Positions 19,096 to 43,708 of a stretch of DNA of 64,000 nucleotides are shown here, one piece after another. The notes below the pieces were generated by a model, which did not search any database, was not told where the DNA came from, and saw nothing but the letters and a program-made list of their open reading frames with translations. Position numbers and translations under genes: made by a program. The stretch's first letter is position 1. Every line of letters begins with the position of its first letter. The DNA lies in NCBI GenBank assembly GCA_013286795.1, contig JABDFA010000001.1, positions 38,195 to 102,194 of the forward strand, read 5' to 3'. Source of the stretch: Candidatus Babelota bacterium (lineage in GTDB: Bacteria > Babelota > Babeliae > Babelales > JABDEC01).

Positions 19096-20028
19096 ATGTT
19101 GAAAAATAAAATTCTGTTTTTTTTGTTTATAGCTTTTGAATTAAGATCTGTAGATATGTATTTTTGTACAGCGTCTGATACAAAATTTTTTATATTTCTG
19201 ACTAATTTAATTGGAAGTATTCATAATACCAACTTTGATAATTTAAAAGAAATTGCAGTATTTGATTTGGGTTTATCACAAAATCAAGTTTTACAACTTA
19301 ACAGTATGCAAAAGGTGAAAGTTTACCAAGTTGAAAAAGTTCATCCTGATATTATTAAACAGTTTAAAACTACACCTTTGGGTAAACTTGTTCCTGGTTG
19401 GTATGCTTGGAAGCCTGTTGTAATAAAACAGGCTCTTGAGATGTTTCCATATGTTTTATATTTAGATGCAGGATTTTCTGTTTTAAAACCACTTGATGAT
19501 TTGTTTACGCATGTTAAACAAAATGGATATTTTCTTGTTACCAATGGAGAAGAATATATTGATGGACGATATAATCATGGTGTTTGGTGGCAGACTACTC
19601 AATATTTAAAAGATAAATTTGAATTAGATAAACCAGATAAAAGTTGGATATTATCTCAAGATTCTTTGATGGCCGGTTTTGGGGGATATTCTAGAAAAGC
19701 TCTTGATAATTTAGTTTCACATTGGTATGAAATGGCTAAAGATTTAAGAAATTTTGCAGATGATGGAACGACTCCAGAGGGTTTTGGAACGGCAAGACAT
19801 GATCAAGCTGTTCTTAGTTTGTTGTGTTACACTAAAAATATATCTGCTCATAAACTAGATCAAACTCAAAATACGCCAATCATTTTAAACGTCTATAATA
19901 TAAAAATTCCATTTTATTTAACATGTTTTGGTAAATACCTTAATAAAAAGACTCATGTGTTTCATACAAGATATTATCAAAATGAAAATGGTTTTTTTTG
20001 CAAATCTATAAGGTATAAAAATGTTTAA
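19096..20028 (+). CDS. Leader-bearing GT-A-like transferase, 'YFCTA' paralog family, copy 1
   Basis: The listed ORF starts at TTG 19060. The first ATG, at 19096, gives the leader MLKNKILFFLFIAF. The blocks MYFCTA.D..F, LIGSIH..NFDNLKEIAVFD, PGWYAWKPV.IKQAL.MFP, LKPLDDLF and DDGTTP.GFGT.RHDQ are shared with the 20021 and 37947 ORFs. Family membership is inferred from the pattern only. Confidence 0.6.
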   Translation: MLKNKILFFLFIAFELRSVDMYFCTASDTKFFIFLTNLIGSIHNTNFDNLKEIAVFDLGLSQNQVLQLNSMQKVKVYQVEKVHPDIIKQFKTTPLGKLVPGWYAWKPVVIKQALEMFPYVLYLDAGFSVLKPLDDLFTHVKQNGYFLVTNGEEYIDGRYNHGVWWQTTQYLKDKFELDKPDKSWILSQDSLMAGFGGYSRKALDNLVSHWYEMAKDLRNFADDGTTPEGFGTARHDQAVLSLLCYTKNISAHKLDQTQNTPIILNVYNIKIPFYLTCFGKYLNKKTHVFHTRYYQNENGFFCKSIRYKNV

Positions 20029-20965
20029 AAAAATTATCTTTATTATTATTATAATTTTTTCAAATTCTATTTTAAAATTGTCATCTGTAGATATGTATTT
20101 TTGTACTGCAGCAGATTCAAAATATTTTGATTATCTTGTGAATTTGATAGGAAGTATTCATAAAAATAATTTTGATAATCTAAAAGAAATTGCTGTTTTT
20201 GATATAGGTATGAATAAAGGAGAGTTGGATCATTTAAGTAAAATTCAAAAACTTAAAATATATCAAGTGAATTTAGTTCACCCTGATATTCTAAAACCTT
20301 TTAAAACTTTAAATGAAGGTAAAATGGTGCCTGGTTGGTATGCTTGGAAACCGGTTATAATTAAACAAGCTTTAGATATGTTTCCACAAGTGTTGTGGAT
20401 AGATTCAGGTTCTGTTGTATTAAAGCCTTTAGATGATTTATTTAAACATATTAAACAAAATAATTATTTTCTTTGTACAATAGGTAATGCAACTGAAAAT
20501 GGTAGATACAGAAATCCTGTAGAGTGGCAAACAACACAATATCTGAGAAAAAAATTTCAAATCGATACACCCGACAAAAATTGGATTTTACAGCAAGAAC
20601 CTATAAACGCTTCATTTATAGGAGTATCAAAAGAAGCGCTTGCTGATTTAGTATTGCCTCTTTATGAGTTTGCAAAAGATTTAAGAAATTTTGAGGACGA
20701 TGGGACTACGCCTGGTGGATTCGGTACATCTAGACACGATCAGTCAATTTTAGCTTTACATGTTTATACTAAAGGATTGAGGTTTTTAAAACAGGATTAT
20801 ACTCAAAACAATCCTATGCTTTTGAAAGTCGATAATCAAGAAGTTCCATTTTATATTACCTGGGACAGTGAAAGTGTTTCAGATAAAACCCACATTTTTC
20901 ATTCGAGATTTGATCTGAGATATACTACTCAATATAAACAGTTTGTGAGATATAAGAATGTCTAA
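20021..20965 (+). CDS. Leader-bearing GT-A-like transferase, 'YFCTA' family, copy 2
   Basis: Tandem paralog of copy 1. The start overlaps the upstream stop (AATGTTTAA). The leader is MFKKIIFIIIIIFSNSIL. Confidence 0.6.
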   Translation: MFKKIIFIIIIIFSNSILKLSSVDMYFCTAADSKYFDYLVNLIGSIHKNNFDNLKEIAVFDIGMNKGELDHLSKIQKLKIYQVNLVHPDILKPFKTLNEGKMVPGWYAWKPVIIKQALDMFPQVLWIDSGSVVLKPLDDLFKHIKQNNYFLCTIGNATENGRYRNPVEWQTTQYLRKKFQIDTPDKNWILQQEPINASFIGVSKEALADLVLPLYEFAKDLRNFEDDGTTPGGFGTSRHDQSILALHVYTKGLRFLKQDYTQNNPMLLKVDNQEVPFYITWDSESVSDKTHIFHSRFDLRYTTQYKQFVRYKNV

Positions 20966-22499
20966 GCTAAAACTTATATTTTTGTTATTATTAATATTTT
21001 CAAAAATAAATTGTTTAAAAATAGATAGAGTAATTCTAGCTACTGATAATAATCCAAATTATATCCAGTTTTGGCCCATAGTTTCAAAAGCATGGAAAAA
21101 TATTGTTGGAGTTAAGCCAACTTTAGCTTTAATAGCAGACAAGTCTGTAAAAGTTGATGAAACATTAGGTGATGTAATTCGTTTTGAACCTATTCCTGGA
21201 GTTTCCACCGCATTATATGCACAGTGTATACGTCTTTTACTTCCAGCATATTTTGAGGAAGATGGTTGTATTTTGTCTGATATTGATATGGTTCCATTAA
21301 ATAAAAATTATTTTTTGGATTCAGTAAAAAATGTTTCAGATAATTGTTTTATAACCTATAGACAATGGACAATCGAAACAGCAGGTAATGAAGAAGTTAA
21401 ATTTCCAATGTGTTATAATGCAGCTAAGGGAAAAGTTTTTAAAGAAGTTTTTAAGATTTCCGATCCAAAAGAGATACCAAAAATAATAAAATCTTGGAGT
21501 GCATTGAATCTTGGTTGGAATACAGATGAGATAATTTTATGTAAATCTTTATTTGAATGGAAAGATTATACTACTAGATGTGTCAATTTAGGCCATTCTG
21601 TTACAGATAGAATAGACAGAATAGGATGGGGTTATAATTCTGATTTATTAAAAAAGGGTAATTATGTAGATATGCACTGCCCTAGGCCATATACTAAATA
21701 TAAAAGCTTTATAGACAAAGTTTTAAGTCATATTGGATTAGAAAATCAAATTAATAAAAAACATAAATTTGTTATAGTTACTACATCTTTTAATAATGAA
21801 AAGTGGTATCTGAAAAATTTGGATTCTATTTTTGGCCAGAATTATACCAATTATAGAGTTATATATATAAATGATATTTCTACGGATAAAACTGGAAAAT
21901 TGGTTCAGGAATACATAAGAACAAGATGTTTAGAGTCAAAATGTGCTTATATAGAAAATCAAGAAAAAAAATATCAGGTTCGAAATTTATATGATGCTAT
22001 TCACATGTGTCAAGATGATGAAATAATTGTTACAGTAGATGGTGACGACTGGTTGCCTGATGATAACGTTTTAACAAAGTTAAATAAAATATATAACGAA
22101 AATGATATTTGGATGACCTATGGCCAATATCAAAATTCACAGGGTAAAATTGGAGGAGCTTCCCCATACTCTGATTATGTAATACAAACAAGATCATTTA
22201 GAAAAGATGATTGGCGAGCTACTCATTTAAGGACATTTAAAGCTTTTCTTTTTAAAAAAATAAAAAAAGAAGATTTGATGTACGAAGAAAAATTCTTAGA
22301 TATGGCTGGAGATTTAGCTTTTATGATTCCTATGTTAGAAATGGCCGGTAATAGATCAATGTTTATTCCGGAAGTTTTATATGTTTATAACATAGATAAT
22401 CCATTAATGGAAAACAAAGTTAATGTAGCAAGACAGAATCTTTTAGCTGATATTACAAGAAATAGAAAACAGTATTCTGTTTTAAGTTTGAATAATTGA
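20958..22499 (+). CDS. Two-module glycosyltransferase (N-terminal GT-A-like module plus C-terminal GT2)
   Basis: The N-terminal module carries 'RLLLPAYFE..ILSDIDMVPL' (DxD-like). The C-terminal module is GT2: 'FVIVTTSFNNEKWYLKNLDSIFGQNYTNYRVIYINDISTDKTG' and 'VDGDDW'. The leader is MSKLKLIFLLLLIFSKINC. It is a paralog of 24462-26024. Confidence 0.7.
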   Translation: MSKLKLIFLLLLIFSKINCLKIDRVILATDNNPNYIQFWPIVSKAWKNIVGVKPTLALIADKSVKVDETLGDVIRFEPIPGVSTALYAQCIRLLLPAYFEEDGCILSDIDMVPLNKNYFLDSVKNVSDNCFITYRQWTIETAGNEEVKFPMCYNAAKGKVFKEVFKISDPKEIPKIIKSWSALNLGWNTDEIILCKSLFEWKDYTTRCVNLGHSVTDRIDRIGWGYNSDLLKKGNYVDMHCPRPYTKYKSFIDKVLSHIGLENQINKKHKFVIVTTSFNNEKWYLKNLDSIFGQNYTNYRVIYINDISTDKTGKLVQEYIRTRCLESKCAYIENQEKKYQVRNLYDAIHMCQDDEIIVTVDGDDWLPDDNVLTKLNKIYNENDIWMTYGQYQNSQGKIGGASPYSDYVIQTRSFRKDDWRATHLRTFKAFLFKKIKKEDLMYEEKFLDMAGDLAFMIPMLEMAGNRSMFIPEVLYVYNIDNPLMENKVNVARQNLLADITRNRKQYSVLSLNN

Positions 22500-22509
22500 G
22501 GAGAAGGAA

Positions 22510-23595
22510 ATGAAGAAAATATTAATTTTTCTTATTGCTATATTTAGTACAGGTTTAATCTCTAGCAAATCAATTTTGTTTTATTCAGCAAATTGGGGTG
22601 ATATATTTTCAGATAATATCTCTTATTTTGATGGGTGTCCCATAAGCTCAAATAGAGATGAATGTAAGAAATTTCTATTTAATTTAAGAGCTACGTGTAA
22701 TTACTTAGGTTATGAAGTTAAGCAGGTATTTGATTTAAATAATATTAATAATTCTAATTTTGACTACCTTGTATGCTTTGATCTAAGACCGGAATATATG
22801 AACCAATTACCTAAATTCTCAAAAGAAAAGTTAATCGCATATTTATGGGAACCACCTACAACTTTATTGCATAATTATAATAAATCATATCATGAATTAT
22901 TTTGCAGGATTTTCACTTGGCATGATGATTTAGTTGATAATAAAAAGTATATAAAGTTTTTTTATCCTGTACTTAATTCATTAGATGTTGAAAAAAATAT
23001 AAATTTTAAAGATAAAAAATTATGTACTCTTATTGGGTCAGATAAATCATCGTCTGATCCTAACGAGCTTTATTCTGAAAGAAGAAGAGTAATAGATTTT
23101 TTTGAAAAATTAAATAATAATGATTTTGATTTTTATGGCATGTCCTGGGATAAAACAAAGTATAGAAATTATAAGGGACCAATTAGTACCAAGATTGATT
23201 ATTTAAAAAAATATAAGTTTTGTATAGCTTATGAAAACGAAAATGGCACTAAGGGTTGGGTAACAGAAAAACTATTTGATTGTTTTAATGCTGGTTGTGT
23301 ACCAGTTTATTGGGGAGCGCCAAATATTGGCCAATATGTTCCTAGTAATTGTTATATTGATAGAAAAAAATTTAGAAACACAGAAGAACTTTATCAATTT
23401 ATTAAAAATATTACCGAAGATGAGTATAACGAATATATTAAAAATATTTCTAATTTTATAGTAACTAGTAGTTCTTTTAAATATTCATGGGAAAATTTTG
23501 TTGATATTTTCTGCAAAAATCTTTTACCTGAATATGATAGAGAACTAGTATTTTCAGGACAAAAACTTGAACTTCTAAAGAGAATAGATAATTAA
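22510..23595 (+). CDS. GT10-family fucosyltransferase-like protein with leader
   Basis: 'YKFCIAYENENGTKGWVTEKLFDCFNAGCVPVYWGAPNI' is the GT10 motif. The leader is MKKILIFLIAIFSTGLISS. It is a paralog of the 1-957 gene. Confidence 0.8.
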   Translation: MKKILIFLIAIFSTGLISSKSILFYSANWGDIFSDNISYFDGCPISSNRDECKKFLFNLRATCNYLGYEVKQVFDLNNINNSNFDYLVCFDLRPEYMNQLPKFSKEKLIAYLWEPPTTLLHNYNKSYHELFCRIFTWHDDLVDNKKYIKFFYPVLNSLDVEKNINFKDKKLCTLIGSDKSSSDPNELYSERRRVIDFFEKLNNNDFDFYGMSWDKTKYRNYKGPISTKIDYLKKYKFCIAYENENGTKGWVTEKLFDCFNAGCVPVYWGAPNIGQYVPSNCYIDRKKFRNTEELYQFIKNITEDEYNEYIKNISNFIVTSSSFKYSWENFVDIFCKNLLPEYDRELVFSGQKLELLKRIDN

Positions 23596-24458
23596 TGTTA
23601 AAAATAAATAGATACTTAATTTTATTTATTTTTAGCGTTAAAATTTTTGCTGAAAATAAGGTCGATCTTATAGTATTTTCATATAATAGGCCAATGCAAT
23701 TGTATGCATTTCTTGAGTCTGTGCAAAAATTTGTAACCAATTTGTCTCAAATTAAAGTAGTCCATAGAATGGATGATAAATATGTTTCAGCTTATCAAGA
23801 AGTTCAAGAGCATTTTAAATGGGTAGAATTTTATAGACATCAAGATTCTACTGATTTTAAATATGTTACTTTAAAAAATATTTTTGAAACTTTTAATGAT
23901 TACGTTCTTTTTGCTGTAGATGATATCATAGTAACAGATTTTATTGATATAGATAAATGTGTAAATGCTTTAGTAGAATCTGAAGCTTACTGTTTTTTGT
24001 TACGGTTAGGTTCAAACATAAAAACTTCTTATATGATTGGCAAAGATAATTCTGCACCAAAAAATAATATCTTTAAAAATAATATTTATATTTATGAATT
24101 CAAAAATGGCGTAGGAGAATGGAATTACCCAAATAATCTTGATATGACTCTTTACAAAAAAAGTGATATTAAATCTGATATTTTTAGTCTTAATATGACT
24201 CGTCCAGGGAACTTTGAAGGCGATTGGGCTCTTATTCCTAAATTAGATAAAAAAGGATTATTTTTTGAACATTCAAAAATAGTTAATATACCAATGAATC
24301 TTGCTCAGGAAACGGGCAATAAAAACATGCGGCTTTACTCTACAGGTGAATTACTTAATAAATTTAATGAAGGTTATAAGATAGACATAAATGAGTTTTA
24401 TAAAATAAATAATGATTCACCACATATGGCATATGTTCCTAAATTTATAAAAAGATAA
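23595..24458 (+). CDS. GT-A-like glycosyltransferase (unclassified), paralog of 41224-42189
   Basis: 'DLIVFSYNRPMQLYAFLESV' is a GT-A N-terminal beta-alpha pattern and 'LFAVDDIIV' is a DxD motif. The leader is MLKINRYLILFIFSVKIFA. The junction with the upstream gene is TAATG. Confidence 0.55.
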   Translation: MLKINRYLILFIFSVKIFAENKVDLIVFSYNRPMQLYAFLESVQKFVTNLSQIKVVHRMDDKYVSAYQEVQEHFKWVEFYRHQDSTDFKYVTLKNIFETFNDYVLFAVDDIIVTDFIDIDKCVNALVESEAYCFLLRLGSNIKTSYMIGKDNSAPKNNIFKNNIYIYEFKNGVGEWNYPNNLDMTLYKKSDIKSDIFSLNMTRPGNFEGDWALIPKLDKKGLFFEHSKIVNIPMNLAQETGNKNMRLYSTGELLNKFNEGYKIDINEFYKINNDSPHMAYVPKFIKR

Positions 24459-24461
24459 ATC

Positions 24462-26024
24462 ATGTATAGAAAAAAATTATTTTTAAGTTTTATATTTTTA
24501 TGCACCTTTAATATCTATTGTTTAAAAATAAACAGAGTAATTTTGTCTACAGATAATAATCCGGTATATATGGAGTTTTGGCCAATAGTATCTAAATTGT
24601 GGAAAGATGTTATTGGAGTACAGCCTACATTAGCCTTTATTGCGGATAAATCAGTAAAAATAGATGAATCATTAGGTGATGTTATAAGATTTGAACCAAT
24701 TCCAGGTATTTCAACTGCAACATATGCCCAATGTATTAGATTATTGCTACCTGCTTATTTTGAAGATGAAGTTTGTATAACTTCAGATATTGATATGTTA
24801 CCAGTTAATAAAGATTATTTTGTTAATTCTATTAAAGGAATACCTGACGATTGTTTTGTAAATTATAAGAATGGTTATTATGAAAGAGATGGTTCTTTTT
24901 TGCAATATCCAATATGTTATAATGTTGCTAAGGGTAAAATTTTTAAAGAAATTTTTAAAATTGCTAGCATACAAGATATACCTTTAATTATCAAACAATG
25001 GGTAAGTAAAGGTTATGGTTGGAATACTGACGAAAGAATACTTTATAAGAGTTTGCATGAATGGTGTTATTTTAAATCAAGATTTATAAGATTGGGACAT
25101 CTGGATAAAGATAGAATAGATAGGTTTAGATATAGGGATCCTAAAGACGGAGAATGGTTTTTTCAATATGATGACAAATTATTACAGAATAATTTTTACG
25201 TAGATGCCCATTGCCCAAGACCTTACCATAAATACAAAAATGAAATTGATAATTTGGTTAATAAGTTAATTTTTAAATCTGAACTAGAAAAGCGAAATGA
25301 ATTTGTGATTATTGTACCTTCTTATAACAACGAAAAATGGTGCATAAAAAATTTAGAGTCCATTTTTAATCAGGGTTATTTAAATTATCAAGTAATATAT
25401 ATAAATGATTGTTCTACTGATAATACAGGCAAACTTGTACAAGAATATTTGAAATCAAAAAATTTAGAAAATAAATGTTGGTATATAGAAAATTTCGAAC
25501 GTAAAGGAGCTCTTGCAAATATATATCAATATGTTCATGCGTGTAAGAATAATCAGATAATTGTCCTACTTGATGGTGATGATTGGTTTGTTCATGAAAG
25601 CGTTCTGTCGATCCTAGATAAAGCTTATAAAAGTTCTGATATTTGGTTAACATATGGTCAATATATTGATACTAATTGTGTATTGGGCTGCGGAACTCTT
25701 TATCCAGAAAATATTATTAAAGAAAGATCTTACAGAGAAAATGAATGGCGAGCATCCCATTTGAGAACCTTCAGGGCTTTTTTATTTAAACATATTTGTA
25801 AAGAAGATTTATTATATGAAGGTAAGTTTTTCGATATGGCATGGGATTTGGCTTTTATGTTTCCTATGCTTGAAATGGCCGGCAAAAGATTTTGTTGTAT
25901 AGATCAAATTTTATATGTTTATAATTTAGATAATCCGATTAGTGATGCTAAGAAAGATAAAGATAGACAAGGTTTTTTAGATCGATACATTAGAAAAATG
26001 GCTAAATATGATATGTTAGATTAG
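24462..26024 (+). CDS. Two-module glycosyltransferase (GT-A-like plus GT2), paralog of 20958-22499
   Basis: 'ITSDIDMLPV', then 'FVIIVPSYNNEKWCIKNLESIFNQGYLNYQVIYINDCSTDNTG' and 'LDGDDW'. The leader is MYRKKLFLSFIFLCTFNIYC. Confidence 0.7.
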   Translation: MYRKKLFLSFIFLCTFNIYCLKINRVILSTDNNPVYMEFWPIVSKLWKDVIGVQPTLAFIADKSVKIDESLGDVIRFEPIPGISTATYAQCIRLLLPAYFEDEVCITSDIDMLPVNKDYFVNSIKGIPDDCFVNYKNGYYERDGSFLQYPICYNVAKGKIFKEIFKIASIQDIPLIIKQWVSKGYGWNTDERILYKSLHEWCYFKSRFIRLGHLDKDRIDRFRYRDPKDGEWFFQYDDKLLQNNFYVDAHCPRPYHKYKNEIDNLVNKLIFKSELEKRNEFVIIVPSYNNEKWCIKNLESIFNQGYLNYQVIYINDCSTDNTGKLVQEYLKSKNLENKCWYIENFERKGALANIYQYVHACKNNQIIVLLDGDDWFVHESVLSILDKAYKSSDIWLTYGQYIDTNCVLGCGTLYPENIIKERSYRENEWRASHLRTFRAFLFKHICKEDLLYEGKFFDMAWDLAFMFPMLEMAGKRFCCIDQILYVYNLDNPISDAKKDKDRQGFLDRYIRKMAKYDMLD

Positions 26025-26031
26025 ATTAAAT

Positions 26032-26991: not shown

Positions 26992-26997
26992 AATAGT

Positions 26998-27636
26998 TTA
27001 TTTTTTTGGGTCAAACCACCAAAAAGTGCTAACTACATGTATATTTTGGTTTAAGTCTTTGGCCATTTTTTCTACGGCTGTTCTTACGCTTGGCCACATC
27101 CAATCATCTCCACTTAAAATACCCCCCGGTTTAAGTTTTTTGTACCAGTTTGAAATATCATCGCATACATCCTCATATTTATGTGAAGCGTCTAGATAAA
27201 TAAAATCAGGAAATAAATTTAATGACTTTACAGCTTCTATACTACTCATTCTTATTGGAACAATCTTTTCTGCCAATCCTAGTTGACGCATGTTAGATAA
27301 AAATAGTGCATATAAATTTGGCAAATATTTTGAATAAACTGGATCATCTTTATGTTCTGGTGACCCGTTCCAAGTATCGATAGCATAAAGGATGCAATTG
27401 TTGGGCATATTTTGTGCTATAAATGATGTAGATAACCCCATCCAAGATCCAACTTCTACTATAGTTTTGGGGTTAATTTGATTCATTATATTTTTTATAG
27501 GCTCTCTGCTATATTCAGAAAACCAACCGTCTAAATTTAAAGGTAATAACTTGATCCATCTGTAGGGTTCCGGGTAATCGCCATTATTTGCGCTAATATT
27601 AAAAAATGCAAAAAATGTTAAAATTAAAAATATCAT
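26998..27636 (-). CDS. Class I SAM-dependent methyltransferase with leader
   Basis: 'IVEVGSWMGLSTSFIA' is motif I. 'IYLDASHKYEDV..LKPGGILSGDDW' is also present. The leader is MIFLILTFFAFFNISA. Confidence 0.7.
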   Translation of the reverse strand: MIFLILTFFAFFNISANNGDYPEPYRWIKLLPLNLDGWFSEYSREPIKNIMNQINPKTIVEVGSWMGLSTSFIAQNMPNNCILYAIDTWNGSPEHKDDPVYSKYLPNLYALFLSNMRQLGLAEKIVPIRMSSIEAVKSLNLFPDFIYLDASHKYEDVCDDISNWYKKLKPGGILSGDDWMWPSVRTAVEKMAKDLNQNIHVVSTFWWFDPKK

Positions 27637-29872: not shown

Positions 29873-30020
29873 ACTTCTACCTTTTTATTAAAAATAAAAC
29901 TTTGAGTTTAATAATACATTATCTATAAAAAATCAATTTTCAATAAATTTGATATTGATAGTTTAAAAAATCTTTTGTAATTTGATTTTGATTATAATTT
30001 TTAAAAGGATTGAATGAATA

Positions 30021-30842: not shown

Positions 30843-30856
30843 TAGATTATATTTTT

Positions 30857-32447: not shown

Positions 32448-32452
32448 ATTTT

Positions 32453-33442: not shown

Positions 33443-33443
33443 T

Positions 33444-36052: not shown

Positions 36053-36077
36053 ATAATAGGATAAGGAAAAAGAAAGT

Positions 36078-37178
36078 ATGAAAGTCTTTAGAAGCAAAAT
36101 AGTTTTTTATATTTTACTTTTATTTAACTACAGTTTTTGTATCAATTACATAACCAATGAAAGAGGGTGCCAAATTGGAGATTCAATTGCGAATTATTGT
36201 TTAGCTAAAGCTTTGTCTATTAAATATCCTGATAAATTAAAATTTCTTTATACACCATTTATCCATTCTGATTTATTTGTTTTTGATTTACATGAAAAAA
36301 GAATAGAACAGAATATGCAGTTTTGCCAAAATATGAGTGCCTATAGTAATGAAAATATTTTACAAAATTCAGATAAGAACAATACGCTTTTTATTGCAAA
36401 TATAGAAACCAAAGTTGATGGCGTTGATCAATTTTTATTAAATACTTTAAAAAAAGAGGTTCAACTTAAACAGATTCCCGAAATTAACTCTATACCCGAT
36501 AATATGATTACGGTTGCTATTCACATTCGAAAAGGTAATGGTGGGGGACAGGTTTATGATGGAGAACAATCATCATTACAAATTTATGATTATGATAGGG
36601 ACCAAGTATGTTATTTAGATGATTATGTAAATTACCCTTTTGATTGGGAGTCTTATAGAAGAAATAGTGGAAAAATTGAGCATATTTTTTTGGCTAATTA
36701 TAAAGATTATGTAACGGATGAGATTTTTGGATGGGCGCCTGCTGGCAAGTTTTTGGACCAAGTTAGTCATTGGCAGACCAAATTCCCTCCTGAACAATAT
36801 TATATTGATCAAATAATAAAATTATCCAAAGAATTAGATAATCAAAAGATATATATTCAGATATTTACAGATGATAAGGACCCTAAAGCTTTAATAGAAA
36901 GAATAAAATTGGCTGTTAATTTATCTAATATTAGTTTTTATTTTGTAAATAATAGAAATTTATCTTTTAGGGATCAGGTTGCTCAGGATTTATATAGTAT
37001 GTCTAGATTTGATATTTTGATTAGGTCGCAATCTTATTTTTCAAGAGTTGCGGAATTAATAGGTGATCATAAATTAGTGATCTATCCGTTAGAATATAAA
37101 TGGGAAAGTGATAAATTAATTATGAATAAAATAGTAATTAAAGGTAATATTTTAAATTTAAAAAGGAGAATTCAGTGA
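36078..37178 (+). CDS. Putative fucosyltransferase-fold protein (GT11-like motif order) with leader
   Basis: 'ITVAIHIRKGNGGG', 'IQIFTDDKDP' and 'ILIRSQSYFSRVAELIG' occur in the same order as GT11 motifs I, II and IV. This is a weak call. Confidence 0.35.
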   Translation: MKVFRSKIVFYILLLFNYSFCINYITNERGCQIGDSIANYCLAKALSIKYPDKLKFLYTPFIHSDLFVFDLHEKRIEQNMQFCQNMSAYSNENILQNSDKNNTLFIANIETKVDGVDQFLLNTLKKEVQLKQIPEINSIPDNMITVAIHIRKGNGGGQVYDGEQSSLQIYDYDRDQVCYLDDYVNYPFDWESYRRNSGKIEHIFLANYKDYVTDEIFGWAPAGKFLDQVSHWQTKFPPEQYYIDQIIKLSKELDNQKIYIQIFTDDKDPKALIERIKLAVNLSNISFYFVNNRNLSFRDQVAQDLYSMSRFDILIRSQSYFSRVAELIGDHKLVIYPLEYKWESDKLIMNKIVIKGNILNLKRRIQ

Positions 37179-37945
37179 CTTTTTCTAAATTGATATTGAT
37201 TTCGGTTGTTTTTACAGCAAATGCAATTTGCGCTGATGAGGATTTAAATAAAAAATTGGATAGTTTTGCAGGAGTGGCATGTTCGCCAAAAGAAACTGTT
37301 TATAATACTTATAATTTATCTTTAAGATGTATACAAAATAATATACCGGGCGATTTTGTAGAATGCGGTGTAGCTGCTGGCGCGCAAATTGCAGCAATGG
37401 GTTATGCTTGCCAAAAATTGGATTCAAACAGAAAAATACTATTGTTTGATTCGTTTGAAGGTATCCCTTTGGCTGGTCCAAATGATACCCAGCAACCTGG
37501 AGTTGGATATTTGGGGCATAATACAAATGTTAAACATATAGAAGATTTACTAGTAAGTAGTAGAACAGTGTATCCTAATCATGACGTATCTGACCATTCT
37601 GTTGAGAAAGTTAAAAATAATATGAAGCGTTTTGGGATTCAGGAGCATCGCTTAGTTTATTATAAAGGGTGGTTCCAGCATGTTTTGCCTATTGTAGCTC
37701 CAATGATGGGAAATATAAGTTTGCTTAGATTAGATGGAGATTTGTATGAATCTACAAAAGTTTGTCTTGAATATCTTTATCCTAAAGTTAGTAAAGGTGG
37801 TTATATAATTATTGATGATTATAACTTAGAAGGATGCAAAAAAGCTGTAGATGAATATTTGAAGGCACATAATATTTTTCCTAAAATGACTTTGATTTGT
37901 TCAATTTTAGGTGGATTAGGTCCAATCTATTGGCAGGTTGAATAG
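37175..37945 (+). CDS. TylF/MycF-family O-methyltransferase with leader
   Basis: The start is GTG, 8 nt after AAGGAG. 'DFVECGVAAGA', 'LFDSFEGIP' and 'LLRLDGDLYESTKVCLEYLYPKVSKGGYIIIDDY' are present. Confidence 0.8.
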   Translation: MTFSKLILISVVFTANAICADEDLNKKLDSFAGVACSPKETVYNTYNLSLRCIQNNIPGDFVECGVAAGAQIAAMGYACQKLDSNRKILLFDSFEGIPLAGPNDTQQPGVGYLGHNTNVKHIEDLLVSSRTVYPNHDVSDHSVEKVKNNMKRFGIQEHRLVYYKGWFQHVLPIVAPMMGNISLLRLDGDLYESTKVCLEYLYPKVSKGGYIIIDDYNLEGCKKAVDEYLKAHNIFPKMTLICSILGGLGPIYWQVE

Positions 37946-37946
37946 T

Positions 37947-38873
37947 ATGAATCAATTCAAGATATATATTTTTTTATTTTTAAATTTAAATTCATATTTA
38001 GTTTTTTGTAATGAGGAAAATATAACTGATCTTTATTTTTGTACAGGAGCAGACTCAAAATATTATAATAATCTTTTGAATTTAATTGGAAGTATTCATA
38101 AAACTAATTTTGATAATTTAAAAGAAATCGCTGTATATAATCTTGGTTTATCAAATATTGAGCTTGAAAATTTAAATAAAATTCAAAAAGTAAAAACTTA
38201 CGAAATTGAATTAACTCATCCGGATCTTCTAAAGCAATTTAAAATGAATAATGAAGGCAAAGAAGTACCTGGTTGGTATGCTTGGAAACCTGTTGCTATA
38301 AAACAATCGCTAGAAATATTCCCCTATGTTTTGTGGATTGATGCAGGCATGGCAGTGTTAAAACCCTTAGATAATCTTTTTAGATACATAAAAAAAAATA
38401 AATATTTTTTATGTAATTTAGCTTCAAGAAATGTGGATAGGCAAACTACAAAATATTTAAAAGATAAATTTAAATTAAATATGCCTGAAAATGGCTGGAT
38501 ATTGGGCCAGATGCCAGTGGTAGGATTTATTATGGGAGGCTCAAGAGAAGCGATTGATATATTATTTGGACCCTTTTATGAATTTACAAAAGATCTAAGA
38601 AATTTTGAAGATGATGGGTCTGCACCGGAAGGTTTTGGTAATGGAAGACATGATCAAGCTTTGCTATCTATATTTGCATATTTAAATAATTTAAAAGTGA
38701 ATTTTATTGATTATTACAATAGTTCACCAATTATGTTAGATGACTATGCATTCTATTTAAGTATAGACAAAATCTATTTTCATCAAAATACTGATGTTTA
38801 TTACCTTGCTAGATTTGATGAAAATCACAATAAGTATGCCGCTTTTATTAAGTATAGAGATAAGAGTGAATAA
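37947..38873 (+). CDS. Leader-bearing GT-A-like transferase, 'YFCTA' family, copy 3
   Basis: 'LYFCTGADSKYYNNLLNLIGSIHKTNFDNLKEIAVYNLG', 'PGWYAWKPVAIKQSLEIFP' and 'DDGSAPEGFGNGRHDQALLS' are present. The ATG at 37947 is preferred over the listed TTG at 37938. Confidence 0.6.
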   Translation: MNQFKIYIFLFLNLNSYLVFCNEENITDLYFCTGADSKYYNNLLNLIGSIHKTNFDNLKEIAVYNLGLSNIELENLNKIQKVKTYEIELTHPDLLKQFKMNNEGKEVPGWYAWKPVAIKQSLEIFPYVLWIDAGMAVLKPLDNLFRYIKKNKYFLCNLASRNVDRQTTKYLKDKFKLNMPENGWILGQMPVVGFIMGGSREAIDILFGPFYEFTKDLRNFEDDGSAPEGFGNGRHDQALLSIFAYLNNLKVNFIDYYNSSPIMLDDYAFYLSIDKIYFHQNTDVYYLARFDENHNKYAAFIKYRDKSE

Positions 38874-39606
38874 ATTAATAAAATATTTCCTATGTCTTTT
38901 TGGATGTGTGCCAGTTTTTTCAGTTGAGTACGGAAATAGGAATCTTTCTAGTACTAAAGTTGTTATAGATTTAGTTAAACCATTTTTGCCCGATAATCCT
39001 ACAATTGTAGAAGCGGGAGCTTATGACGCAGATGACTCTATATTATTGGCTTCTGGCTGGCCCAATGGTTCCATTCATATTTTTGAGCCAGTTCCTGAAC
39101 TGTATGAAAAAATTATCAAAAAGATAACAGTTTATAAAAATATATATTCTTATAATTTAGCGTTGAGTGATAGTAATGGTGTTTCAAAGTTTTATATTTC
39201 TGAAAATATAAATGATCCTGGTCAGCCTACAGCTTCTAGTTCTTTATTGGAACCCAAAGAGCATTTGAATTATGTGCCTTATATTTTATTTAAAAAAGAA
39301 ATTTCGGTTCCTACTATAACATTAGATTCATGGGCAAAAAAGAATGGTATAAAGAATGTTGATTTTCTTTGGTTGGATATTCAAGGATATGAGTTTAAAG
39401 TTTTAAAATCTTCTGGCTGGATTTTAAAAACAGTGAAAGCATTTGTAATAGAAGTAGAATTTGTTGAAGCTTATAAAAATCAAGCCTTATTTTACGAAAT
39501 TCACTCTTGGGCCAAAGATCAAGGTTTTACCCTAGTTTCACGTAATTTTGAATTTAATTGGTGGTGCGGTGATGCTTTGTATGTCAGAAAAGAACTATTG
39601 AGCTAA
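38866..39606 (+). CDS. FkbM-family methyltransferase with leader
   Basis: 'IVEAGAYDADDS', 'IHIFEPVPELYEKI', 'YNLALSDSNGVSKFY' and 'LWLDIQGYEFKVLKS' are present. The listed start at 38794 lies inside the upstream gene. GTG 38866 (GTGAATAA overlap) gives the leader VNKLIKYFLCLFGCVPVFS. ATG 38836 is an alternative start. Confidence 0.7.
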   Translation: MNKLIKYFLCLFGCVPVFSVEYGNRNLSSTKVVIDLVKPFLPDNPTIVEAGAYDADDSILLASGWPNGSIHIFEPVPELYEKIIKKITVYKNIYSYNLALSDSNGVSKFYISENINDPGQPTASSSLLEPKEHLNYVPYILFKKEISVPTITLDSWAKKNGIKNVDFLWLDIQGYEFKVLKSSGWILKTVKAFVIEVEFVEAYKNQALFYEIHSWAKDQGFTLVSRNFEFNWWCGDALYVRKELLS

Positions 39607-39721
39607 AAAAGCCCTGATTAAACAGCTATTTTATACTAAAATTAATCTAAATGTTGCAAATATGAATAATTTTTCATTATACTCGTATTAAGTAATATAT
39701 TTATTAAAAATGGAGATTATT

Positions 39722-41209
39722 ATGAATAGAATTTTTAGTTCTCTTTTATTTATTAGTATTTTGGCGTCTAATTCAAGTTTAATTTATTCTTCACAGCAAG
39801 ACGTTGATTATCTTAAAGGTCTTGTGAAATATCAGGGTGATTTTCCAGGATTATCTAAATTAACCTTAAATAATGCTAAGGAGCAACTGAAGGATATTGG
39901 AGTTATAAAAAATCAATCTTTGCGTAACGGAGAAAATATCTTAGAAAACGTTGTAGGTTTAAAAGATTATCAATCAGCAACTCCAGTAGGAAATTTAAAA
40001 CAAATACAAGGAGACTTAAGAGCTGTGAAGGCATTAATTAATCTTGGTGTTGATATTAACATTAGGGATCAAAACTTGACTACTCCATTGATGATGGCTG
40101 CTTTTACTGGTCAAGATGGTATAGTTGAATATTTATTATCCAAAGGCGCTGATAAGAGTTTGCAAAATAGTGGAGATCATGATTATAAAACAGCTTTAGA
40201 TTACGCTATGGAATCTCAAGAAAAATACAAAGATGATCCAGTAATTTCAGCAAAATTACAAAAAATAGTTCGAATGTTATTATCTGACTCTAAACCAGAT
40301 ATGAGTGAGACAAAAAGAGGGGCTGAGTTTGTTTCAACACCTACTGAATCTGAAAATCAATTACAAGCTATTCAGCAAAATTTAAAGAAATTAAACGCTG
40401 ACGCTAAAATATTATTAGAAAAACCAAAAGGTCCTTTTAACAAGGCAACTATAAATAATTTATTAAGTAATATAAATAACTTAGATCTTAGAATAAGATC
40501 AGGAAAAACTGACACCACATCTGTAAAGAATTATACAGATGAGCTCAATAGATTAATCGATAGTTATAACAGTCTAAATCTATCCATTAATGGTCCAAGT
40601 ACACCTTCTTCAACTGTAGCTACAAATCAAAATGATATCAAAAGAGGAGTTGAATTTGTCTCAACGCCTACACCATCTTCAGAAACCCAAGGTAATCTAA
40701 GAGATCAATTACGTGATTTAAGAGACAATGATTTATTAACATATTTACAACCAAAAGTATTAGGTTTAAAAGAAAAACTAAGGGGAGAGAAAAAAGGTTT
40801 TGATGCCGTCATCGATCTATTATCTAAAATAGACAGATTAGAAACTTTTATAACTTATAGATTAACCTCAAGAATTCCTTTGATCAGTATAGATACTCAA
40901 AAATTAGCAATTTCAGAATTAAATGCGGATTATAATGATTTATTGTTTACATATACTGGAGAAGGTAATGATCCAATCTTGAATAAATTGAATCTTTTGA
41001 AATCTATAGCAGATAATTTGAAAAGTAGACCAAAATATACAGAATTCAAAACACAAGTTGATCAATTCAGTGATGCGGTAGATAAACTATTAAGTAATGC
41101 TAAGAACATGAAAAGAAATGAATTAGAAGGTAAGATAGGTAGTTTAGAAGTGGCACAATGGCATCTATATGAGCTTTTTGGCAAGGAATTTGAAACTGCT
41201 TCTAAATAA
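39722..41209 (+). CDS. Secreted ankyrin protein with two ~110-aa repeats carrying S/T/P-rich patches
   Basis: GGAG lies 6 nt before ATG 39722. ANK repeats include 'TPLMMAAFTGQDGIVEYLLSKGADK'. The duplicated segments start 'KRGAEFVSTPTESEN' and 'KRGVEFVSTPTPSSET', and 'GPSTPSSTVATNQ' is also present. Confidence 0.75.
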   Translation: MNRIFSSLLFISILASNSSLIYSSQQDVDYLKGLVKYQGDFPGLSKLTLNNAKEQLKDIGVIKNQSLRNGENILENVVGLKDYQSATPVGNLKQIQGDLRAVKALINLGVDINIRDQNLTTPLMMAAFTGQDGIVEYLLSKGADKSLQNSGDHDYKTALDYAMESQEKYKDDPVISAKLQKIVRMLLSDSKPDMSETKRGAEFVSTPTESENQLQAIQQNLKKLNADAKILLEKPKGPFNKATINNLLSNINNLDLRIRSGKTDTTSVKNYTDELNRLIDSYNSLNLSINGPSTPSSTVATNQNDIKRGVEFVSTPTPSSETQGNLRDQLRDLRDNDLLTYLQPKVLGLKEKLRGEKKGFDAVIDLLSKIDRLETFITYRLTSRIPLISIDTQKLAISELNADYNDLLFTYTGEGNDPILNKLNLLKSIADNLKSRPKYTEFKTQVDQFSDAVDKLLSNAKNMKRNELEGKIGSLEVAQWHLYELFGKEFETASK

Positions 41210-41223: not shown

Positions 41224-42189
41224 CTATCTTTCTATAAATTGTGGAACATATTCCATATGGGGAGAGTTGTTGTTGATCTTATAAAATTGGCTAATGTCAA
41301 TTTTTAAACCAGATTTAAACTTTGTTAAAAGTTCTTGGTTAGAATATAATCCCATATTGCGGTTAGTAGATTGAGAATAACATAGGTTAAGTGGAATATT
41401 TAAAATCTTAGATTCTGCAAAAAATAAACCCTTTTTATTGTAATCAGATAAGTGATGCCAATAATATTCAAAAGTAGTTGGATTAACCATATTTATTGTT
41501 AATAAATCATTTTTAATATCTTCTTTTTTGTATATTGTCATATCGACAGTATTGGGGTATCTCCAATCTCCACAACTATTATTAAAAGTATACATGCAAA
41601 TATTATTATCAACCAAATTATATTCTGGAAGAGGAGTTGGGTTAATAAACATCATGTATGATTCTTTAATATTAAGTCCAAGTCGCAAATAAAATCCATA
41701 AGCATTAGTTAGTTTTAAAGCTTGCGTGCACTGTAAAATATCTATTTCATCTTTTACTATAATATCATCAACAGCATAGATTATATATTCTTCAGGTGAA
41801 TTAAAAGTGTATTCAAGAGTTAATATTTTAAAATCTGAATAAGGATCATTCCCCTGTTGATGAAATTTATAATGATTAAATCTTTTTTCGACTTCTTTAT
41901 ACGCATCCAAATAATCATGATCTGCTCTAAAAATTATGTGTGTTTCACCTAAATTTTTTACATACTTTTCTATAGATTCAAGAAGCGCATATAATTGTAA
42001 AGGTCTATTGTATGAAAATATAACTAGATCTGCTTTGTTTCCTGCAAATAAGTTTATAAAAATAGTTGAGAATAATGCTACTAAACATAATAATTTTTTT
42101 TTGGATTCGTATATAAGTCCGTTCGCCCTGAGCGATGTCTGAGCGACGAAGGAGTCGAAGACAGAGTCGAATGGGTTAACTATATTCAT
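41224..42189 (-). CDS. GT-A-like glycosyltransferase (paralog of 23595-24458) whose 5' end and start codon lie inside a GC-rich repeat
   Basis: 'ADLVIFSYNRPLQLYALLESI' and 'IYAVDDIIV' are present. The homology-supported body starts at '..KKKLLCLVALFSTIFINLFA', which has no canonical start of its own. In-frame ATGs occur only in or beyond the repeat (42189, 42375, 42384), so the end coordinate is uncertain. Confidence 0.6.
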   Translation of the reverse strand: MNIVNPFDSVFDSFVAQTSLRANGLIYESKKKLLCLVALFSTIFINLFAGNKADLVIFSYNRPLQLYALLESIEKYVKNLGETHIIFRADHDYLDAYKEVEKRFNHYKFHQQGNDPYSDFKILTLEYTFNSPEEYIIYAVDDIIVKDEIDILQCTQALKLTNAYGFYLRLGLNIKESYMMFINPTPLPEYNLVDNNICMYTFNNSCGDWRYPNTVDMTIYKKEDIKNDLLTINMVNPTTFEYYWHHLSDYNKKGLFFAESKILNIPLNLCYSQSTNRNMGLYSNQELLTKFKSGLKIDISQFYKINNNSPHMEYVPQFIER

Positions 42190-42323
42190 AAATATATTTA
42201 TGAATTCCCAGATATTATTTTTAATGAAACATTTAAAGCATAAATTACTTAAATTTTTTACCCATTCGACTCCCTCATTCGACTCGCGTAAACGCTCGCT
42301 CAGAGATCGCTCAGGGCGAACGG
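42119..42323. repeat. MITE-like GC-rich palindromic element (205 bp)
   Basis: The terminal inverted repeats are CCGTTCGCCCTGAGCGAT (42119-42136) and ATCGCTCAGGGCGAACGG (42306-42323). Imperfectly complementary GC-rich arms of about 60 nt flank an AT-rich centre. It is collinear with the 51149-51311 copy. Confidence 0.8.
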
Positions 42324-42433
42324 GATAAAGACAAGTTAATTTAATTTTTATATTAAAAATATGAGTATAATGCATAGTTATCACGAACGGATTTTAAATT
42401 TATCTTCCAACCAAATTAATTCCCTAACAGCTT

Positions 42434-43708
42434 TTAGGATTTTGCAGGTATTTCTTCACCATTATTTAACTTATTTTTTAGAGCAAGTTCATTTTGTTGT
42501 AATTTTTCCAAATAACACATTAAATTATGATACAAATGTGGAACCGCTGCTTTGATAGCATTCATAGTTGCATCTTTGCCAATGCTATATTCACCAGCAT
42601 GCCAAGCAGATTTGCTTAAAATTTCATGTCTAGTGTAATCATAAATTTGTTTATCAACAAAAAGTACCTCATTTTGAGGGTAAGGCAAATCTTTGGTCAT
42701 CTTTGCAAATAAAAAACAGGTTGGAATATTTTCTGGCCAATAATGTTCAGCAATTCTAATTAGTGGTTCTGCGCGATGTGATCTTAGTTGATAAGCTTTG
42801 AGATAATAATCCATAGCCATTTGCCAAGTAAATTTTTCATCTATTTTGGAAAGCGAATCAGATACTCTTGCAAGTCGATAAAATGTTTCATAATTTTCTT
42901 CATCCCAGCCAGGTTGATGAGAACGAAGTTCATAATATTTATAAGCATTATGCAAATCATTAAGACCTTCAAATGTTTGGGCTAAGTAAAATGTGGTGCG
43001 TGAATTTTCTGGATTTTTATTGTGATCTTTCAATAGTAGTTCTCTATCTCTAACCCAACGTTTTTGTGTAGCTTCTATTCCTCTGCTGGTAGGTTTATAT
43101 TCTAAGTATATATCTTTTGGAAGTCTATCATTACTAGAAATTGGTATTACTTCGTGGACAACTCCCATAAATCTACTATTTGAACCTTTTCTTATAAGTC
43201 TACAGTGGTAAAAATCTGTAGGATAACTGATTACGCGTATTAAATAGGCTTTACGAGTTAAATTATTTGCTTCCTTTTTACAAAAATCTAATAATCCTTC
43301 AACATTATGTGCATACCATTCCGCATCGATCATTAAAATAAATGCTGCATTTGGAAATTTCTCTTCAGCTAAATCAAGAGCTCTATTACGAGATGTTGAA
43401 AAATCAATAAAGGGTTCTTGAGCGATGTGCCCATTCTTTACATTATTTTGGTTAAAATAATCTTTTACTACATTAATTGTGTTATCGGTGGAACCGGTAT
43501 CAAAAATAAAGTAATCTTTTATTCCAGCTTTTATAAATGGTTCTAACGTTGCATTAATAACCTTTTCTTCATTTTTTACCATTAAAGTTACCACTAAAAG
43601 TGGATTGTAAATAACATCATCTAAATTAGGAGGGTATATTGAAAATGCATGAATAAATATTAGATTAGTGATAATAGTGAGTTGTAATAGATTTTTTTTG
43701 GATATCAT
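42434..43708 (-). CDS. GT2 glycosyltransferase with a C-terminal helical-repeat (TPR-like) region and a leader
   Basis: 'LVVTLMVKNEEKVINATLEPFIKAGIKDYFIFDTGSTDNT' and 'MIDAEW' are present. The C-terminal half has the helical repeats 'FYLAQTFEGLNDLHNAYKYYELR' and 'AMDYYLKAYQL'. Confidence 0.7.
   Translation of the reverse strand: MISKKNLLQLTIITNLIFIHAFSIYPPNLDDVIYNPLLVVTLMVKNEEKVINATLEPFIKAGIKDYFIFDTGSTDNTINVVKDYFNQNNVKNGHIAQEPFIDFSTSRNRALDLAEEKFPNAAFILMIDAEWYAHNVEGLLDFCKKEANNLTRKAYLIRVISYPTDFYHCRLIRKGSNSRFMGVVHEVIPISSNDRLPKDIYLEYKPTSRGIEATQKRWVRDRELLLKDHNKNPENSRTTFYLAQTFEGLNDLHNAYKYYELRSHQPGWDEENYETFYRLARVSDSLSKIDEKFTWQMAMDYYLKAYQLRSHRAEPLIRIAEHYWPENIPTCFLFAKMTKDLPYPQNEVLFVDKQIYDYTRHEILSKSAWHAGEYSIGKDATMNAIKAAVPHLYHNLMCYLEKLQQNELALKNKLNNGEEIPAKS

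Follow-up and report, generated by a model that had tools for sequence, protein, structure and literature searches.

Putative Sec-type export leaders on every protein of a glycosylation gene island in a Babelota bacterium

In the textbook scheme of bacterial glycan synthesis, nucleotide-sugar chemistry takes place in the cytoplasm and the product is moved out on a lipid carrier. What, then, are we to make of a bacterial glycosylation locus in which every protein starts with a short, hydrophobic, export-type leader? The question is raised by a 64,000-nucleotide stretch of the Candidatus Babelota assembly GCA_013286795.1 (contig JABDFA010000001.1; the window, below) and by the 24.6 kb gene island that lies within it at 19096–43708. 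We find that these leaders look like cleavable signal peptides of the Sec pathway, and on balance we think it probable that the island enzymes form a Sec-exported glycosylation toolkit, acting outside the bacterial cytoplasm on donors and cofactors of the host.

A first-pass annotation of this DNA had described the island as 24 consecutive open reading frames (ORFs). Its coordinates and the tight packing hold in the ORF layout, but we count 23. Neighbouring ORFs overlap by 8 nt at 20021/20028, 20958/20965 and 37938/37945, by 4 nt at 27633/27636 and 37175/37178, and by 1 nt at 23595, 28634 and 35114. Four strand blocks can be distinguished, at 19096–26024 (plus), 26032–29872 (minus), 30021–41209 (plus) and 41224–43708 (minus), and the divergent intergenic region of 148 nt at 29873–30020, between a minus- and a plus-strand block, presumably holds promoters. 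The GC content of the island (0.265–0.30) equals that of its flanks and thus gives no sign of recent import; recent horizontal transfer of the island was considered and rejected, there being no compositional signal.

Leaders on every protein of the island

A leader was scored where an uncharged window of nine residues near the N-terminus, read from curated starts, had a mean Kyte-Doolittle hydropathy of at least 2.0. All 23 island proteins pass this test, compared with 5.5% of internal windows and 11% of shuffled sequences, which bears out the earlier claim that every island enzyme carries a basic and hydrophobic leader. Could such leaders be an artefact, either of wrongly placed starts or of the Ile/Leu/Phe/Lys-rich proteome of an AT-rich genome? 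The GC content of 27–30% and the fraction of shuffled sequences that pass lend this explanation some weight, yet we regard it as extremely improbable. The island score of 23/23 exceeds the background several-fold. None of the island genes has an alternative start between the leader and the catalytic domain, so that the check suggested in the first-pass annotation, whether downstream starts would remove the leaders, finds none that do; the leader-including starts have ribosome-binding sites, amongst them those of two GTG starts, AAGG (28634–29872) and AAGGAG (37175). The same window also holds housekeeping genes whose products are leaderless (Prs, the PRPP synthetase, a PRTase, Maf, YchF, DnaK, MiaA, CarD, and regulators of the TetR and MerR types). 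Furthermore, leaders are kept in related loci of 31–46% GC, whereas AT-rich classical loci lack them. Artefacts of composition and of start-codon choice were rejected on the strength of the start analysis, the controls and these AT-rich leaderless loci, and judged from the sequences the island leaders are real and selected for.

The next point to consider is the kind of leader. A net charge of +1 to +3 precedes the hydrophobic stretch in 20 of the 23 proteins, and the uncharged stretch, 15 residues long at the median, covers 9–17 residues in 16 proteins and 18–23 in the other seven. No twin-arginine motif is present in the island leaders, and the lipobox pattern matches only twice, in both cases past the leader and within the catalytic domain. 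To avoid circular picking of sites, a leader profile was anchored on the conserved first β-strand of two glycosyltransferase families of the island, termed A and B and described below. In this profile the hydrophobic core is 70–77% LIVFMWC with 0–2% charged residues, and a polar stretch enriched in Ala and Ser lies 3–5 residues ahead of the strand (in family A, Ala/Ser make up 51% at position −4; in family B, Ala makes up 23% at −5; the Ala background is 5%). The first catalytic strand begins 3–8 residues past the leader, with no stem region, and AlphaFold models of both families have a helix at residues 2–17, a short linker and then strand 1 at residues 23–25. Plausible signal peptidase cleavage sites can be picked out by sequence pattern in all 23 proteins. 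Taken together, the short uncharged stretch, the modelled helix, the missing stem and the Ala/Ser enrichment fit the anatomy of a cleavable Sec leader rather than that of a Golgi-type anchor, and the island leaders look like cleavable Sec signal peptides on soluble domains.

The first-pass annotation had proposed the opposite, a type II signal-anchor topology resembling that of Golgi enzymes, and the same four features tell against it. Under such a scheme the anchors would remain uncleaved and would keep the catalytic domains attached to the inner membrane on its periplasmic side, where host nucleotide sugars would diffuse in through the outer membrane. A basic n-region followed by a hydrophobic segment does give an N-in/C-out orientation, several leaders have no textbook AXA motif and uncharged stretches of 19–23 residues (31737, 33444, 36078 and 41224), and the island encodes no polytopic protein. 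For the longer leaders an uncleaved anchor is possible. As an account of the island, however, tethering of this kind seems unlikely: a median stretch of 15 residues and a modelled helix of residues 2–17 are short for a membrane span, strand 1 follows too closely for a stem, and the position-specific Ala/Ser enrichment fits sites of signal peptidase I.

The absence of membrane machinery from the island deserves closer attention. None of its 23 ORFs encodes a polytopic membrane protein, and by Pfam it contains no phosphoglycosyl transferase, flippase, gmd or manC; the first-pass annotation had said as much of polytopic proteins, an initiating transferase, gmd and manC, and the Pfam and hydrophobic-segment analyses agree with it. 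An initiating polyprenyl-phosphate transferase has no Pfam match in the island or in the other scanned ORFs of the window, and Gmd and ManC, for the supply of GDP-4-keto-6-deoxymannose, are likewise absent from the window by Pfam. These missing parts could be encoded elsewhere in the genome if the N-termini served to hold classical cytoplasmic enzymes at the inner membrane, facing the cytoplasm, with an initiating transferase and an exporter supplied from another locus. In keeping with this, all of the chemistry requires cytoplasm-type cofactors, and the window does encode an unclassified polytopic protein at 59801–61189 (plus strand), 16 kb from the island. This protein of 462 aa has at least 10 hydrophobic segments and no match in Pfam, NCBIfam or the PDB sequences; a highly diverged flippase of the MOP type is one possibility, an unrelated protein another. 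An MraY-like gene and another unclassified polytopic protein also lie near the leader-type cluster of L001, one of the metagenome loci considered below. We nonetheless judge a cytoplasm-facing tether to be distinctly improbable. The positive charges precede the hydrophobic segment and do not follow it, and the same kind of leader is found on a chitinase-like GH18+CBM2 protein (L007), a GH3 hydrolase, and ankyrin and DOT1 proteins. In addition, the leaderless version occurs with polytopic partners on L112, a locus of the same assigned phylum, so that two distinct architectures can be told apart.

The polytopic protein of L001 (2674–4107, minus strand) has 477 aa and no Pfam family, adjoins the MraY-like gene and lies a few kb from a leader-type cluster of ManC, Fcl and Gmd. 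It may matter for attachment of the product.

Enzymes of the island and their neighbours

Thirteen glycosyltransferase genes in the island are supported by Pfam or by AlphaFold2 models searched with Foldseek. The first-pass annotation had put the number at 14 or more; the protein at 36078 and the N-terminal modules of the enzymes at 20958 and 24462 are at most candidates. Its assignments of a GT10, a GT32, an exostosin-like enzyme and three GT2 enzymes are all supported by Pfam, and the two families that it had called unclassified and GT-A-like do have a GT-A fold in the AlphaFold2 models and in the Foldseek matches.

The first of these, family A, comprises the proteins at 19096–20028 (plus; leader MLKNKILFFLFIAF), 20021–20965 (plus; leader MFKKIIFIIIIIFS) and 37947–38873 (plus), together with the N-terminal part of the protein at 33444–35114 (plus). 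None of them matches a Pfam glycosyltransferase family. The first two are paralogues with 58% identity in the family alignment, and the products of 19096–20028 and 37947–38873 are identical to the database proteins P0126 and P0166, respectively, down to the start. The protein at 33444–35114 contains the family motif YFCTAA and has a leader ending in LLSA before NQ; it matches DUF1647 (E 4e-5) and continues into an unclassified C-terminal domain. Modelled from a deep alignment, family A reaches a pLDDT of 95.7 and adopts a GT-A fold nearest to the GT8 clan, with XXYLT1, LgtC and the catalytic domain of UGGT amongst its Foldseek matches. Family B consists of the proteins at 23595–24458 (plus) and 41224–42189 (minus), which are 51% identical, have no Pfam match and include one with an atypical N-terminus (41224). 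Its model (pLDDT 94.3) is again a GT-A fold, with an invariant DD motif and with matches to POMGNT1, GnT-I, TarP and SpsA. Families A and B can thus be regarded as two structurally confident yet unclassified GT-A families.

The remaining glycosyltransferases belong to known families. Two enzymes have two modules, an N-terminal module followed by a GT2 domain, at 20958–22499 (plus; PF00535, E 1.5e-17, residues 273–424) and 24462–26024 (plus; PF00535, E 7e-19), the N-terminal module being unclassified in the former; both carry leaders. A GT10 protein, of the fucosyltransferase family, is encoded at 22510–23595 (plus; leader MKKILIFLIAIFS; PF00852, E 1.1e-15). The leader of the protein at 26032–26991 (minus) ends in YLNA before WK, and its catalytic domain is RXYLT1_C/exostosin (GT47)-like, scoring 29.0 bits with PF24785 (cut-off 27) and 27.3 bits with PF03016, where the cut-off is 33.4. 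Leaders are also present on a GT11 protein, of the α-1,2-fucosyltransferase family, at 30021–30842 (plus; PF01531, E 8e-10) and on a GT32 protein with the DXD sugar-binding region at 30857–31711 (plus; PF04488, E 3.4e-16), for which the ATG at 30857 is the probable start and which also has TcdA/TcdB-like and Gb3-synthase-like matches. Finally, the protein at 42434–43708 (minus) has a weak leader, a GT2-like domain (PF00535, E 5.9e-5, 23.5 bits with a cut-off of 23.3) and a helical C-terminal region. Of two GT11-like proteins claimed earlier, Pfam supports one, at 30021. The protein at 36078–37178 (plus) is unclassified and only possibly GT11-like, without a Pfam match. Leader-bearing homologues of it recur, as it has a leader itself, in the leader-type loci L001, L016, L040 and L065.

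The methyltransferases number three firm cases and two weak ones. Those with firm matches are a class I enzyme (Methyltransf_24) at 26998–27636 (minus; leader ending in NISA before NN; PF13578, E 6.3e-18), a TylF-type sugar O-methyltransferase at 37175–37945 (plus; leader ending in ANAICA before DE; PF05711, E 8.5e-40) and an FkbM-family enzyme at 38866–39606 (plus; leader MNKLIKYFLCLFGCVPVFS; PF05050, E 3e-24; TIGR01444). Two leader-bearing paralogues at 32453–33442 and 35114–36052 (both plus) are methyltransferase-like by matches to PF00891 that fall below the cut-off (E 2e-3 and 2e-4, respectively). About seven such domains had been claimed; Pfam does not support the two others, namely the protein at 31737–32447 (plus; leader ending in VQA before NI), which has no significant match, and the C-terminal domain of 33444.

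Two enzymes of nucleotide-sugar metabolism complete the set. At 27633–28634 (minus) lies a GDP-L-fucose synthase-like (Fcl/ColC-like) epimerase/reductase (PF01370, E 1.7e-62), in which a leader of 20 residues directly precedes the Rossmann motif. Its identity to Bacillus-type enzymes is ~67%, and it scores 466 bits against the NCBIfam model for GDP-L-fucose synthase, NF047922 (cut-off 500). The DegT protein at 28634–29872 (minus; leader ending in FISA before EE; PF01041, E 2.2e-92) resembles the pyridoxamine phosphate (PMP)-dependent sugar 3-dehydratases of the ColD/E1 type. Its matches include the ColD structures 2gms and 3gr9 and the E1 structure 3bcx, and a His is aligned to the catalytic Lys of the aminotransferase 7b0m (‘vaHllttg’ compared with ‘gnKiittg’), a replacement that is a signature of ColD/E1-type 3-dehydratases. 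This alignment and the NF047922 score uphold the earlier naming of a ColD-like dehydratase and an Fcl/ColC-like synthase. The two genes adjoin with a 1-nt overlap, and the pair is conserved in locus L008. The pairing of a ColD-like enzyme with an Fcl/ColC-like reductase points to a branch that yields a GDP-6-deoxyhexose, of either the fucose or the colitose type.

A leader-bearing ankyrin-repeat protein (39710–41209, plus; PF12796 and PF00023) shares a strand block with enzymes of the island. It has two copies of the motif KRG(A/V)EFVSTPT(E/P)S followed by coiled-coil-like sequence, in a region rich in Ser, Thr and Pro; that this region might be a glycan acceptor site is speculation.

Outside the island, a second GT10 paralogue is found at 1–957 (plus; PF00852, E 1.3e-14) in a frame open from base 1. 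The gene continues beyond the left edge of the window, and more glycosylation genes thus probably lie upstream. On the other side, 2 kb from the island, a GH3 hydrolase of the NagZ/β-hexosaminidase type with a leader (45779–47467, minus; PF00933, E 1.8e-81) may have a role in glycan trimming or peptidoglycan turnover. The same kind of leader occurs on a short-chain dehydrogenase/reductase (SDR; 6260–7048, minus; PF00106, E 7e-35) and on a WD40-like repeat protein (11169–12401, minus), so that the habit extends to other normally cytoplasmic enzymes. At least eight ankyrin-repeat-like proteins of the window, two of them confirmed by Pfam, have leaders as well.

Several further observations concern the rest of the window, in which there are no rRNA or tRNA genes. 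A DOT1-like protein, of the histone-lysine methyltransferase family (51348–52142, minus; PF08123, E 8e-21), has a leader and a Lys-rich tail and is a candidate effector of host chromatin; its leader and that of the SDR are present as first described. The translation of 54165–54902 (plus) has a leader, a leucine-rich repeat (LRR)-like region and a C-terminal RING-like Cys/His pattern, whilst that of the adjoining 54909–56264 (minus) is an ankyrin protein with Cys-rich inserts of RING/U-box-like appearance; both are candidates for secreted mimics of E3 ligases. Cyclodipeptide synthases use aminoacyl-tRNAs, and the leaderless one encoded at 3819–4505 (plus; PF16715, E 1.5e-30), next to a TetR-like ORF at 3181–3801, is unexpected in a genome-reduced intracellular bacterium.

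Relatives and related loci

Is the leader a peculiarity of this island, or is it a property of the enzyme families? For family A, 308 database relatives were collected, and the named ones come from Babeliales; for family B the number is 258, and the named ones come from Dependentiae, TM6 or Babeliaceae, with one Chlamydiia record. Taken together, the named relatives of both families are from Babeliales, Dependentiae or TM6 apart from that record and one labelled Limnocylindria. These names and the gene content suggest that the window belongs to an AT-rich and obligately host-associated bacterium of the Dependentiae, akin to Babeliales. By the strict form of the leader test, 108 of 120 family A relatives and 104 of 120 family B relatives have a leader, and most of those that fail are truncated or have a Lys within the leader. 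A leader is present in 117 of 150 GT10 relatives (the best cluster representatives). Amongst the Fcl relatives, for which ordinary bacterial enzymes start MNKDAKIYVAGH, leaders are found on ~24 of the best 120 and are unrelated to each other in sequence. The leader sequences diverge among relatives and the leader character is kept. A quick neighbour-joining tree of the 120 Fcl homologues does not resolve those with leaders into one clade; they fall into 13 small pure groups.

When metagenome contigs were scanned with the GT10 paralogue, 78 loci were obtained. Eight of these, with a GC content of 0.31–0.46, have leaders on 83–94% of their ORFs, and similarly organised leader-rich islands at 31–46% GC are L008, L010, L013, L015, L016, L021, L037, L040 and L065. 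Co-located homologues of the island families carry a leader in 42 of 54 cases where the GT10 homologue has one and in 6 of 40 where it has not (Fisher p = 1.3e-9). Only two leaders were seen among 22 ORFs of AT-rich classical loci (GC 0.27), and base composition is therefore not the cause. The island L008 (GC 0.39) has leaders on a two-module GT2 enzyme, a GT2, TylF, FkbM, family B, ColD-like and Fcl proteins, methyltransferases and a GT6 protein, whereas the toxin-antitoxin and helix-turn-helix genes next to it code for leaderless products. Enzymes that are missing from our window occur in related loci with leaders, ManC in L001 and L016, Gmd in L001, L016 (twice) and L021, and L021 also holds a leader-bearing sulfotransferase (PF00685, E 1.4e-21) and a GT4.

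Three leader-bearing enzymes of these related islands, at 19656–20390 in L008 and at 4587–5333 and 6231–8180 in L021, are the GT6 protein, of the ABO/α-Gal family, the sulfotransferase and a 649-aa fusion of a papain-like DUF1796 domain with an Fcl-like epimerase domain.

The first-pass annotation would have been weakened by close homologues with identical leaders in free-living bacteria that make ordinary lipopolysaccharide (LPS); in classical loci of the LPS type no leader-bearing homologue was found, and those loci, such as L005 and L112, hold leaderless versions. On L112 (GC 0.30), which has one protein named by NCBI as Dependentiae, ManC, Fcl and Gmd are all leaderless, and the contig also encodes a heptosyltransferase and HldE, as LPS-core genes, and four polytopic membrane proteins. 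A classical organisation is thus present in an apparent member of the same phylum with matching GC content. Leader-bearing versions do occur in a few metagenome-assembled genome (MAG) records labelled as Chlamydiae (L004; P0347). By sequence comparison, the leader is an add-on specific to this lineage and to those few records.

Leaderless relatives of families A and B, which begin exactly at the first strand, are present in glycosylation clusters on IMG/VR contigs, so the leader is not intrinsic to either family. At least one of these contigs looks phage-like; a contig with family relatives had no match among known phages, and Pfam was uninformative. Use of these contigs as a natural control for leaderless enzymes acting inside a host was considered and dropped, since a giant-virus nature was not supported and one of them is phage-like. 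In structural comparison with viral proteins, family A finds its best matches in giant viruses of protists, whose glycosyltransferases reach E 7e-14 at 22% identity and outscore the best PDB matches of the family. Across the viral matches, however, identity is 14–22% and cyanophage proteins are mixed in. With a GC content equal to the flanks and an Fcl-like enzyme 67% identical to Bacillus-type proteins, the eukaryotic or giant-virus ancestry that had been suggested for the island is not supported.

Do the enzymes cooperate at all? Each transferase might instead be an independent secreted effector which, like a toxin, modifies its own host protein or glycan, with no common product. The TcdA/TcdB-like match of the GT32 protein, the ankyrin gene inside the island and the wealth of leader-bearing effector-like proteins in the window are compatible with such a view, as is the database protein P0341 (429 aa), in which a signal peptide and a family B domain are followed by C-terminal ankyrin repeats, a fusion that hints at docking of some members onto host proteins. 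ColD-like and Fcl-like enzymes and sugar O-methyltransferases (TylF, FkbM) are nevertheless co-located with the transferases, an association that points to a pathway for a modified glycan, and L008 and L021 have conserved the same combination of enzymes as an island. We accordingly consider independent effectors to be an explanation of low probability.

A proposed site of action outside the cytoplasm

The reading that we favour, a Sec-exported toolkit working on host donors, can be set out as follows. Each enzyme would cross the inner membrane unfolded and would lose its leader a few residues before the catalytic domain, as the sequence pattern suggests; it would then fold and act in the periplasm, at the cell surface or in the host cytosol, which could be reached by type II secretion or by release of vesicles. 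Donors and cofactors (GDP- and UDP-sugars, NADPH, glutamate/PMP and S-adenosylmethionine (SAM)) would be derived from the host, and the product would be a fucosylated or colitose-containing, methylated glycan on surface molecules of the bacterium or on host targets. Such a scheme would not need an initiating transferase for a lipid carrier, a flippase or a polymerase. The sequences show what the enzymes are, that they have leaders, and that these leaders are conserved and confined to one lineage; export, cleavage, site of action, donor source and acceptor are what we infer. The leaders on all proteins and the lack of membrane machinery in the island support the earlier statement that this is not a classical surface-polysaccharide locus, and of the readings then offered, that of an exported set which uses host nucleotide sugars is the best supported.

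ManC, Gmd and sulfotransferases use GTP, NADP(H) and PAPS, respectively, and the enzymes of the island itself need NADPH, PMP/glutamate and SAM; none of these is known to be present in the periplasm of a free-living bacterium. GTP, NADP(H), PAPS, PMP/glutamate and SAM are abundant in the eukaryotic cytosol. Leaders of the same kind stand on proteins with eukaryote-type domains for which no periplasmic substrate is expected (DOT1-like, ankyrin, WD40 and LRR-RING).

Several points weigh against an exported toolkit. Sec export of more than 20 cofactor-dependent enzymes demands that both folding and the loading of NADP or PMP take place outside the cell. As a heuristic, the leader test has a background of 5–11%, and two island proteins fit it poorly: that at 41224 has, atypically, 32 residues ahead of its hydrophobic segment, and the leader of that at 42434 is weak. 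The leader-bearing Fcl proteins are not depleted in Cys (a mean of 5.3 compared with 3.6), which speaks weakly against an oxidising periplasm as the place where they work, and the polytopic protein at 59801–61189 could, as noted above, be a flippase.

Taking the related loci together with the island, we tentatively suggest a larger picture, which may well be correct but to which we give somewhat less than even weight. A complete Leloir assembly line (ManC, Gmd, Fcl, ColD-like enzyme, sulfo- and methyltransferases and more than 12 glycosyltransferases) would operate outside the cytoplasm, with the periplasm, the cell surface or the host cytosol as a Golgi-like workspace fed by the host. It would make a glycan of the bacterium, or one directed at the host, with neither lipid carrier nor flippase, and would be widespread in LPS-less Dependentiae and present in some MAG records labelled as Chlamydiae.

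How does this compare with known systems? Babeliales are reported to be without most LPS genes (PMC4776705), and the richness of Dependentiae in signal peptides is already known. According to the genome reports, Chromulinavorax destructans has signal peptides on 44% of its coding sequences and on 78% of its ankyrin proteins (PMC6561590), whilst in Babela massiliensis signal-peptide-bearing ankyrin proteins are probably released into the amoeba, and the sole secretion system is of type II (PMC4378268). As in our island, short Sec-type leaders are widespread in these secretomes, chiefly on ankyrin and other eukaryote-like proteins, and the type II system is proposed there as the route across the outer membrane (PMC4378268, PMC6561590). 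The passages of these reports that were searched mention proteases, nucleases and ankyrin proteins, but not a whole leadered Leloir pathway; nor, in the literature searched, was a leader-tagged glycosylation pathway that includes nucleotide-sugar enzymes found for Dependentiae.

The classical O-antigen and capsule loci of the Wzx/Wzy and ABC types share with the island the GT2, GT10, GT11, ColD/Fcl-type and FkbM-/TylF-type families. Their enzymes, however, are leaderless and accompanied by an initiating transferase, a flippase or ABC exporter and a polymerase (for example in L005 and L112), whereas the island is without membrane machinery. The eukaryotic Golgi offers a parallel in two respects: N-terminal hydrophobic targeting places glycosyltransferases outside the cytosol, and the repertoires overlap in GT10, GT11, GT32, GT47-like and GT8-like enzymes and, in L008, GT6. 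The island leaders differ from Golgi anchors in being short and stemless with a c-region of the signal peptidase type, and here the enzymes of nucleotide-sugar synthesis have leaders too, unlike the eukaryotic GMD and FX enzymes, which are cytosolic. Viral and giant-virus glycosylation clusters likewise combine glycosyltransferases, methyltransferases and nucleotide-sugar enzymes, but in leaderless versions that start at the first catalytic strand and with low identity to those of the island.

Two bacterial precedents support the principle that Leloir enzymes can act outside the cell on host donors. In Chlamydia trachomatis, housekeeping enzymes of sugar metabolism that have gained secretion signals build glycogen outside the bacterium, GlgA working in the inclusion lumen on host UDP-glucose (PMC4829429). 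The route there is type III secretion and a few enzymes make one homopolymer, whereas the island has more than 20 enzymes with Sec-type leaders and the proposed product is a heteroglycan. In Neisseria the sialyltransferase Lst, a Leloir-type transferase located in the outer membrane, takes CMP-NANA from the host as its donor at the surface of the bacterium (PMC4324315), but it is a single enzyme that caps classically made lipooligosaccharide.

In conclusion, all 23 proteins of this glycosylation island carry hydrophobic leaders, and in the GT10 relatives and in families A and B most homologues keep them. With the textbook scheme reversed, a lineage of intracellular bacteria appears to export the enzymes and to run the chemistry on donors supplied by the host. 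The island yields many natural export-tagged fucosyl-, galactosyl- and methyltransferases. If the proposal is true, it would parallel the secreted glycogen enzymes of Chlamydia and the glycosylation clusters encoded by viruses, and it would help to explain the large predicted secretomes of Dependentiae, as well as how these genome-reduced bacteria build or disguise their surface or remodel the glycans of their hosts.

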